Source: a virus
IMG/VR virus record: IMGVR_UViG_3300028392_000038
Location: 1-64,000 of that record
Direction: 5' to 3' (one strand)
Length of the DNA stretch: 64,000 nucleotides
Shown here: in pieces, positions 7,583-11,826 of the stretch
Position numbering within the stretch: position 1 is the first letter of the stretch
How the letters are laid out: each line of letters begins with the position of its first letter
Translations under genes and position numbers: made by a program
Notes under the pieces: generated by a model
What the model was told of the DNA's origin: nothing
Databases searched by the model: none
Seen by the model: only the letters and a program-made list of their open reading frames with translations

Positions 7583-7999
7583 ATGAAACATATTAATAAT
7601 TTCAAATTATATTTAGAATCAAAAAAGGATAAATTTCCAAATATACAAAAGAAGGAAATAGATGGATTTACAGTCTATATTGGTAAAGATGCCAAGTCTA
7701 ATGATTATCTAACATTTAATATGGCTGATAATGATGATATATGGATGCATGTAAAAGGTATACCAGGTAGTCATGTTGTAGTTAAAACAAAAGAAATATC
7801 ATCAACTAAAGAAATGTTTATACCCTCTAAAGAAATTTTAAGAAAAGCAGCAGAATTAGCTAAAAAGAATAGCAAGTCTCCAAAAGATGAAAAATCAACA
7901 GTTGTTTATTGTCAAAGAAAGTTTGTTAAGAAAGAAAAAGGAATGAATGATGGTCAAGTCAAAGTAGATTATGTTAATTCCTACGAAATTATAATTTAA
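7583..7999 (+). CDS. Stand-alone NFACT-R (RqcH/FbpA C-terminal-like) RNA-binding domain protein
   Basis: IGKDAKSNDYLT, DIWMHVKGIPGSHVVV, AAELA..NS and V.Y.....VKK...G.V motifs. Confidence 0.85.
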   Translation: MKHINNFKLYLESKKDKFPNIQKKEIDGFTVYIGKDAKSNDYLTFNMADNDDIWMHVKGIPGSHVVVKTKEISSTKEMFIPSKEILRKAAELAKKNSKSPKDEKSTVVYCQRKFVKKEKGMNDGQVKVDYVNSYEIII

Positions 8000-8034
8000 T
8001 ATTTAATATATACTCTAATAAAATTATTATAGAA

Positions 8035-9384
8035 ATGGCAGATCAAACACCAGAAAGAATTAAAATGATATTTACTGAAGAATTTTATAACATTCTAAAA
8101 AAATTAGAAGCTGAAAATAATTATTTAGCCTTTGAATTACTTTGGATGATTGAACCAGATTCTAAATTTCACAATGGATTAAAAATATCAAAAGTAGATG
8201 TATCTAAACAAGATTGGTCATTTGATGTAACAGTAGATGGCAAAGTTATACCTATGAAAATAGGTAAATTTGTGAGATATTATTTTGCAGGAATAATAAG
8301 TGATAAAGAAGCTAGTGAATTTTCAAGATTATATAATAAAATAAGAAAAGGAGAACCTGTTCAACCAGGAAATCAAATTGAAATTAAAGAATTTTCTTAT
8401 AATCCAAAAGATGTTAGGTCTACATTCCTTTCTTTAGTTACTAAAACATATCCACACGGACATGAAGATGAAGTTCTTAAATTCTTACCTTCTTTACAAA
8501 AAGATGAAGTAGGAAACTATTATAAAATAATAGGTAAAACTCCTCAAACAATGTTTACATCTCACTTAGACACAGCCGATAGAGAACAAAAAGATACTAA
8601 ACTATACTCTATGATTGAGAATGATGAGGAGTATATTGTAACAGATGAAAGTACTATATTAGGAGCAGATGATAAGTCTGGTGTGGCAGTAATGTTATAT
8701 ATGATGTCACATAATATACCAGGTCTTTATTACTTCTTTATAGGAGAAGAAAGAGGTGGTATTGGTTCAAATAAGTTATCTAGAATATACGATACAGTAT
8801 CTTATTTAAAGGAAATTAAAAGATGTGTTTCATTTGATAGAAGAAATTATCATTCTGTTATTACTTCACAATTAGGAAGAAGATGTTGTTCTGATGAGTT
8901 TGGAACTGCTTTATGTAAAGAATATAACAAAAATGGACTAGATTTATCATTAGATCCTACAGGAATATACACAGATTCGGCATCATTTATAGATGATATT
9001 AGAGAATGTACTAATATATCAGTAGGTTATTTTCATGAACACACTGGTCAAGAATATCAAAATATGAATTATCTTATCTCACTATGCGAGGCTTCTATAA
9101 AAGTTAATTGGAATTCACTACCAACAATAAGAAAAGTTGGTATAAATCAAGAAATTATACAAAAACACAAAGGATTAATTGCTGATGTTAAATCAACAGT
9201 ATTTGAATTAGAAGTTAAAATGATTGGAGATAATGGTAAAGTCTTTATAAGAGTAGATTTAGATGATTCTGATATAGAATCAATATCTGATGGGTTATCA
9301 TCATTAAAATCACTTCTAATGAAATATAAAATGGATCCAGATATTATTTTTGATGGAACATATCTAAAAATTGAATTGAAATAA
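8035..9384 (+). CDS. M28/M20-family zinc peptidase with extra N-terminal domain
   Basis: SHLDT, GADDKSG, GEE, SFDR, YTDS and HEH metal-binding motifs. Confidence 0.8.
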   Translation: MADQTPERIKMIFTEEFYNILKKLEAENNYLAFELLWMIEPDSKFHNGLKISKVDVSKQDWSFDVTVDGKVIPMKIGKFVRYYFAGIISDKEASEFSRLYNKIRKGEPVQPGNQIEIKEFSYNPKDVRSTFLSLVTKTYPHGHEDEVLKFLPSLQKDEVGNYYKIIGKTPQTMFTSHLDTADREQKDTKLYSMIENDEEYIVTDESTILGADDKSGVAVMLYMMSHNIPGLYYFFIGEERGGIGSNKLSRIYDTVSYLKEIKRCVSFDRRNYHSVITSQLGRRCCSDEFGTALCKEYNKNGLDLSLDPTGIYTDSASFIDDIRECTNISVGYFHEHTGQEYQNMNYLISLCEASIKVNWNSLPTIRKVGINQEIIQKHKGLIADVKSTVFELEVKMIGDNGKVFIRVDLDDSDIESISDGLSSLKSLLMKYKMDPDIIFDGTYLKIELK

Positions 9385-9385
9385 T

Positions 9386-9838
9386 ATGAAACTAAAGAAT
9401 TATAAAGAACTATTCGAAAAATACGAGGATACTGATTATGATGATGAGTCATATTATAATGATGATGAATATCTTTTTGGTAGACCAAATCATTCAAAGA
9501 AAGGAACCGAAGAAGAAGAGGAAGAGGAAGAAATGATTGGTGATTCTGATATGGATAACCTTCTATATTTATTAAGAACTATGTTCAAGAATAAAGGTAT
9601 TAAAGATGTTTATGTTGAACATGATGAACTTGATATAACAATATCAGTTACTATGGGTTATAGAGAAAAGATAGAATCAATTATTAGTGTTTTTGATACA
9701 GCTAAAAGATTGAAAAGAGATATTCTACCTCAATATGATTCAGAATTTGAAATGTGGGAAACTAAAGATGGTAAACCACTTCTAGTATTTAACTTCTATT
9801 ATGGAGAAGGATTAGAAGATGATAATACTCCTTTTTAA
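9386..9838 (+). CDS. Acidic hypothetical protein with capsid-targeting-like N-terminus
   Basis: Starts MKLKNYKELFE; contains a poly-Glu tract. Confidence 0.7.
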   Translation: MKLKNYKELFEKYEDTDYDDESYYNDDEYLFGRPNHSKKGTEEEEEEEEMIGDSDMDNLLYLLRTMFKNKGIKDVYVEHDELDITISVTMGYREKIESIISVFDTAKRLKRDILPQYDSEFEMWETKDGKPLLVFNFYYGEGLEDDNTPF

Positions 9839-9893: not shown

Positions 9894-10271
9894 GGGGATG
9901 TTTTAGAATCGATTGGTAGTGTGGTGGTAGTTATGCAGGTATCGGGTGGTTAAGTGTCCGATTAATAAATTAAGTAACACGTCGTAAATGGCAAAACAAA
10001 TGAAGTAGGAACTCGTGAAGATTTAGTAGCGGCTCTACAAAACAACATGATCTTGGTAGAAGATCTAGCAACTGTCTAATAAATAGTTACTATCAAAAAA
10101 TTCTCCAACCTGATTCACACAGGATAAAAAAGGTGAGACCATTTTTTGTAACTTTTTAGAGTCTGTCCAAAAAAGTATCTATTTTGTTGATTTAGAAAAA
10201 TTAACTAAGCTTGTAAACGAATAATTATAAACAACTATTAAGACACCGGACGCAATATCTGGTCATCTCCA
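9894..10271 (+). ncRNA. ssrA: tmRNA (transfer-messenger RNA)
   Basis: 5' GGGGATG pairs with 3' CATCTCC(A), including the G3.U wobble that specifies Ala. AATCGA follows the D-loop. Helix 2 TTGGTAGT/ACTATTAA, CTAAGCTTGTA element, GAC before the T-arm. Tag ORF 9990-10079 ends in tandem TAA. About 378 nt, followed by a terminator. Confidence 0.88.
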
Positions 10272-10275
10272 CAAG

Positions 10276-10308
10276 AACAAAAGACCATTTCTGGTCTTTT
10301 GTTGTTTT
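10276..10308 (+). terminator. Intrinsic terminator after tmRNA
   Basis: AACAAAAGACCA-TTTC-TGGTCTTTTGTT followed by T-rich sequence. Confidence 0.8.
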
Positions 10309-10317
10309 AAACAAGGT

Positions 10318-11004: not shown

Positions 11005-11826
11005 ATGAGAAAATTAAGAAAGTTAACATATGATCAAGAATTGGAAGTTTTTAACGAACGAGAATCAGATAATAGAAGAAATGATATTATATCAAAATGG
11101 GGAATATCAGAAAGACATTATAAAAATATAATTTTAAAATTTGGAGGTGAGTTAAAAAAAATACCAACTTGGTGTAATTTTAATATAGATTACTTTGAAT
11201 CTATAGATACCGAAGATAAAGCTTACTTTTTAGGATTTATTGTTGCAGATGGGTGTGTTAGTGATAGCACAAATAACATTAGAATAACACAGAAAGAAAC
11301 TGATATTTTATATGAATTTAAAAAATATACTAATTCAGAAGGTAATGTATTTACTTCAAAAAGTAGAAATATTTCAAGTTTTGGTTTATCATCCGCTAAA
11401 ACTAAGAGTGATTTGGAAAAATTAGGAATACATTCAAATAAAACAATGGTAGTTAAATATCCAAATATACCTGATAACTTACATAATCACTTCATGAGAG
11501 GAGTATTTGATGGAGATGGGTGTATATCTATACATCATGATAAAAGAGATAATAGTGACAGAGGACAAGTTAATATATGTTCTGGTAGTTATGATTTTAT
11601 AAAAGAATACTATGATAAATTGGTTGAATTTGCTAATTTAAGTGGTAAAAATAAAATAAGATGCCCTAAAGGAACATATTATGTTATTGATTGGGGTGGT
11701 TTAACTGATGTTGAGAACATTTACTATTTTTTATATAAAGACGCGAATGTGTTTTTAAAAAGAAAAAAGGAAACTTTTGATAAAGTAGTATCTATAACTA
11801 AAGATAAAAATAAATATAGAAAATAA
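11005..11826 (+). mobile_element. Free-standing double-motif LAGLIDADG homing endonuclease
   Basis: AYFLGFIVADG and HFMRGVFDGDG motifs with an N-terminal HTH-like segment. Its stop codon abuts the methylase ATG. Confidence 0.85.

Follow-up and report, generated by a model that had tools for sequence, protein, structure and literature searches.

Does the region spanning positions 9894-10271 (+) of a 64,000-nucleotide stretch of viral DNA encode a functional transfer-messenger RNA (tmRNA) and, if so, what would become of the proteins that such an RNA tags? The stretch, referred to here as the window, corresponds to positions 1 to 64,000 of a 116-kb IMG/VR virus record, estimated by CheckV to be 49% complete. 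In an original prediction made from the window alone, the locus had been read as a phage tmRNA that adds a long peptide lacking the C-terminal Ala-Ala recognized by ClpXP, so that ribosomes would be freed while the tagged protein would be spared or redirected. The analysis presented here indicates that the locus very probably encodes a functional tmRNA on which translation resumes at the GGC codon at position 9990. It is further considered rather probable that this RNA acts in trans-translation together with a phage-encoded SmpB, adding rescue capacity, with the tag still serving as a relaxed degron distinct from the LAA type.

The window represents part of the genome of a freshwater megaphage of the Mahaphage type and encodes a T4-type capsid protein that shares ~70% identity with the capsid proteins of LR745206 (634-kb) and LR756502 (642-kb), two uncultured megaphages that each contain a homologue of the window tmRNA (77-80% identity). 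When a conserved 16-mer was used in a search for relatives, 37 viral contigs were obtained, 25 of which carry a tmRNA homologue. Identity among these tmRNA sequences is 72-95%, the upper value being that of G001, while neighboring proteins are ~40-97% identical, mostly 55-70%. DNA of this phage is present in many freshwater or lake metagenomes. Fifteen distinct tmRNA sequences were aligned; for counts concerning the reading frame, two more distant sequences (from LR756504 and LR756501) were added, for a total of 17.

When the covariance model of the tmRNA family (RF00023) was applied with permissive filters, an end-to-end match (model positions 1-374) to 9894-10274 was obtained, with a score of 30.6 bits (E = 1.8e-10 in a 751-nt search) and high posterior probabilities at both ends. 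The mature RNA probably comprises 9894-10271 plus an added CCA. A search of the whole genomes of five relatives with RF00023 returned tRNA-like pieces only and missed the real loci, and hence is uninformative as to second copies. A 131-nt tRNA-like match to the same model (G003:C1:221075-221205; 31 bits), seen among the tRNA genes of one relative, possibly represents a tRNA that contains an insertion or intron.

RNAalifold, run on the 15 aligned sequences, recovered the acceptor stem, the T arm, the long P2 helix and the first stem of pseudoknot PK1. Pairing was then scored on a hand-drawn structure that included the pseudoknots, using as control the same structure with 3' partners slid by 1-3 columns. 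In the 15 distinct homologues, 94.2% of pair cells were paired, as compared to 39-48% in the slid controls, and changes on both sides, i.e., compensatory changes, were seen at 28 pairs. Together, the full-length match and these compensatory pairs bear out the assignment of the locus as a phage tmRNA. At the tRNA-like end, the G3:U70 pair is kept in 15/15 homologues, acceptor pair 5 covaries (AU, GC, GU) and the discriminator is A10271; G3:U70, a 7-bp stem and a discriminator A are the features that define alanine identity. The D-loop analogue in the window, UUUUAGAAUCGA, departs from the usual GGAUUCGA, the form also given in the RF00023 consensus line. Within PK1, stem P3 is invariant, while stem P4 is paired in 95% of cells, with compensatory changes at 3/4 pairs. 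The hairpin that lies within the tag frame is thermodynamically weak (-5.5 kcal/mol, z 0.03), and the tag changes TR..AA to SN/SK..FA correspond to its two sides. The terminator-like hairpin that follows the RNA was not flagged in a simple terminator scan, and a promoter scan returned weak matches only, with no promoter being established.

The tag frame reads as originally described, with GTAAAT (9984-9989) being followed by 29 open codons that begin with GKTN, include an internal LVAA and end with LATV, and then by two TAA codons. RF00023 places the resume codon on GGC 9990, whereas ARAGORN, the other program proposed for this check, remained silent. All 17 sequences have U and A at five and four positions before the resume codon (U-5/A-4), and these have their counterpart in U85/A86 of E. 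coli tmRNA, which set the reading frame (PMC2481249). Counting the Ala borne by the RNA, the tag would comprise 30 residues, with a net charge of -3 in the window and of -1 to -4 among relatives. Frame 0 is open in 17/17 sequences over 24-33 codons, while each of the other two frames contains 1-7 stops. In a shuffling control, a single sequence kept the frame open for that long in 6-16% of trials, the figure for a frame like that of the window being ~8%; given that the tags of three deep lineages hardly align, the open frames are largely independent of one another. Insertions and deletions occur in frame (3 nt in L033; 6 nt in the L005 group), variable columns number 22 at the third codon position but 15 and 16 at the first and second, and the ratio of non-synonymous to synonymous differences (pN/pS) is 0.69 in frame 0, as opposed to 0.89 and 0.93 in the shifted frames.

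The claim that the tag is long and without terminal Ala-Ala holds for the window and for 15/16 other relatives examined, although the length of 10-15 residues against which it was judged is too narrow a baseline, known tags ranging from 8 to 35 residues (PMC8012679). Among the 17 tags, terminal Ala-Ala was seen only in that of LR756504, which ends AVAA. The window tag ends ATV and so lacks the C-terminal (L/M/V)-Ala-Ala of a ClpX-type degron. The final residue is nonetheless V in 11/17 and A in 6/17, and is never polar or charged, with the tails ATV, MTV, MAV, AVA, ETA, VEA and ELV being found among relatives. Ending in a hydrophobic residue is a general rule for proteolysis tags (PMC4131195). 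At the other end, the Bacillus-like GKTN start is found in the window and in part of the family, while other members start with GNV or DNV, resembling three of the four tags read in genomes of the Bacteroidota, which start G/D-N-T (the fourth starts ADN). No other copy of the tag was detected when five tag peptides were compared with the 116-kb record by tblastn, nor did a regular-expression scan of the C-termini of the 158 open reading frames (ORFs) of at least 80 residues in that record reveal any mimic of the tag tail.

Partner genes were sought in seven larger relatives (G001, G002, G003, LR745206, LR756502, LR756504 and LR756501), with LR756500 serving as outgroup. SmpB was found in 7/7 (E ~1e-50), with both the GKK-x-DKR motif and the C-terminal tail intact. 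Among bacterial SmpB proteins, the best matches reach no more than 39-51% identity and are scattered over many phyla, which argues that the system is old in the phage lineage and not a recent capture. The same seven genomes encode a PolyA_pol/CCA-adding family enzyme and a ClpC-like protein of ~710 residues that contains two AAA+ modules, a UVR motif, a D2-small domain and a VGF ClpP-docking loop, yet has a very short N-terminus without the usual double Clp_N domain. ClpP is encoded in the window's own record, outside the window (G000:C1:79044-79577; PF00574, E 2e-68, with Ser and His active-site motifs), as well as in 6/8 other records, with up to three paralogues per relative. A Lon_C domain was not found in the five phage records searched, and alanyl-tRNA synthetase (AlaRS) was represented by a fragment-like match in LR745206 alone. 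In the outgroup LR756500, SmpB, the ClpC-like protein, the CCA enzyme and the tmRNA were not found.

RNA corresponding to the locus is present in four freshwater metatranscriptomes from four studies, as short contigs confined to 9923-10249 at a depth of 10-240, while flanking coding sequences are covered at a depth of 0-2. These contigs derive from close relatives of the phage, the second tail type included. Two RNA contigs of relatives stop at the 3' end of the acceptor stem, reading ...CUCCA and ...CUCCAC. That contigs fail to cover the flanks and the initial 30 nt should be taken as no more than a hint.

Still deeper relatives place the tmRNA elsewhere. In none of LR756504, LR756501 and LR756500 does a tmRNA lie less than 7 kb from the capsid gene, although the first two carry one at other sites. 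That of LR756504 (L153:1453-1809 (-)) scores 65.2 bits, above the RF00023 threshold, and encodes a tag of 24 codons with a DNV start and U-5/A-4. It resembles the window family in its long tag, in U-5/A-4, in being invisible to ARAGORN and in belonging to a genome with genes for SmpB and a ClpC-like protein, and differs from the window in exceeding the Rfam threshold, in encoding CCA and in its canonical Ala-Ala end. Beside this gene (L153:1991-2066 (-)) lie a tRNA-Met and a tRNA read by ARAGORN as having a four-base anticodon (tcta). In LR756501, at 735 kb the largest phage genome, a tmRNA-like gene (L150:1203-1825) encodes a 33-codon tag ending LVLA and has a group I intron (RF00028, 96 bits, L150:1561-1792) inserted into its T arm, after which the 3' exon reads ...CGAAUCCCUG and continues into the acceptor strand. 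An intron in the T loop of tmRNA is known from Clostridium botulinum.

Several observations weigh against the presence of a working tmRNA system. The score of the window tmRNA falls short of the RF00023 gathering score of 47 bits, such that an Rfam scan of the window returned no family at the gathering score. ARAGORN called no tRNA or tmRNA in the window and no tmRNA across the 116-kb record as a whole or at the loci of LR745206, LR756502, LR756501 and LR756504, probably because the T loop is non-canonical. The window has CGCAAUA as its loop, whereas relatives mostly have GGCAGUA, otherwise GGCAGUG or GGCGGUA. None of these contains the UUC of the canonical UUCRANY, meaning that U54-U55, present in every canonical tmRNA and tRNA, is missing. 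With such a loop on a T stem of six pairs, acceptance by AlaRS, elongation factor Tu (EF-Tu) and the ribosome is not assured. Since the genome reads ACAA (ACUA in L025) rather than ACCA after the acceptor stem, CCA is not encoded and must be added. At the RNA level, the contigs hint at a small RNA that is abundant and discrete, yet assembled contigs cannot prove transcription or RNA ends. As for the tag, selection on the peptide appears from the sequence comparison to be present but weak, and in EDLV, the stretch of the tag that is best conserved, where RNA-level and peptide-level constraint are inseparable, constraint on the RNA could explain the conservation. Lastly, the window's own record yielded no SmpB, and neither G001 nor LR756501 yielded ClpP, while the co-occurrence of Clp and SmpB genes is drawn against one outgroup, LR756500, and is confounded by relatedness.

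In the favored reading, that of phage trans-translation with a tag that is still a relaxed degron, the RNA would be transcribed from its own unit ending at the terminator-like hairpin, trimmed after the discriminator A and then given CCA. It would be charged with alanine by virtue of the invariant G3:U70 and, together with an SmpB encoded outside the 116-kb fragment, would enter stalled ribosomes. Translation would resume at GGC 9990, adding Ala and 29 residues before the double TAA is reached. The likely benefit for the phage would be extra ribosome-rescue capacity in the course of infection. The tag itself may be viewed as opening in Bacteroidota-like fashion, continuing through ~20 spacer residues and closing with a brief hydrophobic stretch. 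A tag so built would be recognized by a reader other than the strict LAA pocket of ClpX, with candidates being the ClpC-like unfoldase of the phage acting with ClpP, or proteases of the host that tolerate non-polar C-termini.

A bolder proposal is that this recognition is private to the phage, with a tag added by the phage tmRNA and SmpB being read by the phage ClpC-like unfoldase and fed to phage ClpP, independently of host ClpX and LAA. This must be considered tentative, with a low probability being assigned. Were it true, truncated proteins could be cleared and recycled in infection without competing for, or needing, host proteases.

The fate originally proposed for tagged proteins, namely rescue without destruction, in which ribosomes are freed and the long tag is no degron, leaving the products spared or redirected, is judged unlikely. 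In several bacteria, what makes tmRNA essential is release of the ribosome and not tagging, and sparing would be in keeping with the missing terminal LAA in the window and in 15/16 other relatives, as well as with a tail that drifts as if little constrained and a pN/pS of only 0.69. Against this, the final residue is always V or A, as the general rule for degradation tags would have it (PMC4131195), and an ssrA variant ending ASV serves as a degradation tag (PMC3317779). Moreover, were the product irrelevant, there would be little reason for lineages to keep a frame of such constant length. The AVAA end in the sister lineage LR756504, together with the investment of these phages in ClpP and a ClpC-like unfoldase, favors a role in degradation over sparing. 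Of the original prediction, then, the phage tmRNA, its frame and a long tag without Ala-Ala stand, while the length baseline, the parts given to LVAA and LVE, the generality of the GKTN start and the support for sparing do not.

It is more improbable still that the 29-codon frame is not used at all, either because translation resumes at GCA 9991 to give a five-residue tag, an outcome that the original prediction had named as one that would overturn it, or because the RNA is an untranslated decoy that titrates host SmpB or AlaRS. An RNA consisting of the tRNA-like domain (TLD) only is known from mycobacteriophage DS6A (PMC4131195), and the aberrant T loop seen here could be taken in the same sense. 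However, in the +1 frame from GCA 9991 (five codons and a stop; two codons in L033), neither the first codon, the peptide nor the length is conserved among relatives, while U-5/A-4 points to GGC and the long frame is open throughout. A decoy for SmpB also sits poorly with phages that themselves encode an SmpB whose tail is intact. A decaying relic of a captured host ssrA would account for the low score and odd tag, for invisibility to ARAGORN and for failure to reach the Rfam threshold, but is very hard to reconcile with 28 compensatory pairs, a fixed gene order, tmRNA identities of 72-95%, RNA contigs at depths of up to 240 and SmpB proteins so distant from those of many bacterial phyla as to suggest an old system. 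The masked degron of the original prediction, in which a helical extension would hide LVAA, or expose it once a prohead protease, taken here to be of the gp21 type, had cut at LVE, can practically be set aside, since these motifs, although present in the window, are not conserved (LVAA being LVFA, IVSA or LVAT in relatives, and LVE being SVE even in L014, with a 93%-identical tmRNA, and VGD, VGE or TPE elsewhere), and prohead proteases act inside proheads.

Table 1. Position and supporting evidence of the tmRNA, its structural elements and upstream genes in the window.
Feature	Position	Strand	Evidence
One-piece tmRNA (ssrA) gene	9894..10274	+	RF00023 full-length match, 15 homologues, covariation
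Acceptor stem, 5' strand GGGGAUG, pairs with 10264-10270	9894..9900	+	7 pairs, all cells paired
D-loop analogue UUUUAGAAUCGA	9901..9912	+	Alignment of homologues
Long helix P2, 5' strand, pairs with 10209-10241	9913..9940	+	98-100% paired, 4 compensatory pairs
Pseudoknot PK1: P3 9941-9945/9958-9962, P4 9949-9952/9975-9978	9941..9978	+	Covariation scoring
Frame-setting U-5/A-4	9985..9986	+	UAAA(U/C) directly before resume codon, 17/17
Tag frame, 29 codons from resume codon GGC	9990..10076	+	RF00023 resume-codon position, conservation
Hairpin within tag frame, 12-nt loop coding conserved EDLV	10006..10037	+	4/4 inner pairs compensatory
Helix-5-like weak hairpin holding the stop codons	10066-10092	+	-4.3 kcal/mol; stops in 7-nt loop; RF00023 P5
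Tandem TAA stops	10077..10082	+	Sequence; loop of hairpin 10066-10092
Pseudoknot PK2: 10109-10112/10120-10123 and 10114-10118/10133-10137	10109..10137	+	Two compensatory pairs, second stem
T arm, 6-bp stem and 7-nt loop	10245..10263	+	5/6 stem pairs compensatory
Terminator-like hairpin, then UUGUUUU	10273..10309	+	-16.4 kcal/mol, z -4.8 by direct fold
Stand-alone NFACT-R domain protein	7583..7999	+	PF05670, E 4.3e-15
Peptidase, partial peptidase T resemblance	8035..9384	+	PHROG 4191 'peptidase', E 6e-65
Acidic 150-residue ORF, directly upstream of tmRNA	9386..9838	+	Conserved gene order

Examination of the surroundings of the tmRNA (Table 1) revealed the same order in all relatives with enough flanking sequence, namely capsid, NFACT-R protein, peptidase, acidic ORF, tmRNA, NADAR and Dam methylase. 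Since rescue factors of the RqcH/NEMF type bind RNA through NFACT-R, the cluster at 7583-9838 may be functionally linked to ribosome rescue. When compared with PDB entries for tripeptidase and peptidase T, the peptidase gave E-values of 1.6e-6 and 3.3e-5, in each case over ~85 of its 449 residues, while no match at E 0.01 was obtained in a Pfam search. A LAGLIDADG homing-endonuclease ORF (11005-11826) lies between the NADAR and Dam genes; being present in the window and L013 only, among ~20 relatives, it is considered a mobile insertion.

A clade of freshwater megaphages that includes relatives of the largest known phage genomes thus carries a tmRNA that ARAGORN does not call. With that program missing the family and only one of three lineages (LR756504) reaching the Rfam threshold, censuses of phage tmRNAs may be undercounts. 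In retaining all tmRNA helices while having lost the universal T-loop sequence, the RNA presents a natural experiment on the actual requirements of AlaRS, EF-Tu, SmpB and the ribosome. The tag is, moreover, a candidate virus-encoded proteolysis tag orthogonal to that of the host which, if confirmed, would provide a new degron/protease pair for synthetic biology, in the manner of Mesoplasma Lon. A search of the literature yielded no description of this family, of the aberrant T loop, of tags of 24-33 codons or of a linkage to Clp genes. Huge phages encoding tmRNA and SmpB have been reported, as entries in ARAGORN lists, in a study that also predicted Bacteroidetes to be the host of the >634-kb relatives (PMC7162821).

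In five sampled genomes of the Bacteroidota, a tmRNA was found in each case, scoring 108-145 bits against RF00023. The four tags that could be read by ARAGORN comprise 9-10 codons and end YALAA or YAMAA, indicating that the phage tag, about three times as long, is no copy of a host tag. The phage RNA shares much with the one-piece tmRNA and SmpB system of these bacteria, including the G3:U70 acceptor, a long P2, PK1 before the resume codon, U-5/A-4, a frame without a start codon, stops in a helix-5-like hairpin, downstream pseudoknots, a length of ~380 nt and, in relatives, a canonical SmpB. It differs in having the T loop NGCRRUR on 6 bp rather than UUCRANY on 5 bp, in its altered D-loop analogue, in not encoding CCA, in its score of 30.6 bits and in a tag of 29 codons ending in V, as opposed to tags ending in AA.

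Long tags that escape the LAA rule of ClpX also exist in cells. Mesoplasma, an organism not known to possess ClpXP, has a tag that ends in an aromatic residue plus Ala, unlike the tail of the phage tag. The 27-residue Mesoplasma ssrA tag is a degron for Lon, with the full length, and not just the final ten residues, improving recognition (PMC10695633), and reading of the M. florum tag by Lon is attributed to Gur and Sauer (2008) as cited in PMC3439342. Like this tag, that of the phage is naturally long, at 25 residues or more, and lies outside the ClpX rule; unlike it, the phage tag comes from a virus and not a cellular system, is not known to be related in sequence to the Mesoplasma tag and occurs in phages in which no Lon was found. 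Engineered tags offer another parallel, in that a small residue followed by Val still makes a degradation tag, albeit a weaker one, with ATV being one conservative change from ASV. Half-lives of ssrA variants ending ASV or AAV were reportedly determined by Andersen and colleagues in 1998. Practical use of a variant ending ASV to mark proteins for degradation is documented (PMC3317779). These engineered tags are, however, 11-residue E. coli tags assayed in E. coli and mycobacteria.

Among phages, tmRNAs have been catalogued in Bacillus phage G and in cluster C mycobacteriophages (PMC4131195, PMC12484599), with SmpB going unmentioned in the paper on these RNAs. As in the present case, the tmRNA of phage G occurs in a large phage and its tag ends in VA rather than LAA. 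The tmRNAs of phage G and the mycobacteriophages are, however, found by standard tools and encode short tags (13 residues in phage G). By contrast, the megaphage tmRNA family is missed by ARAGORN, encodes tags of 24-33 codons and travels together with genes for SmpB, a ClpC-like protein, ClpP and a CCA-adding-type enzyme.

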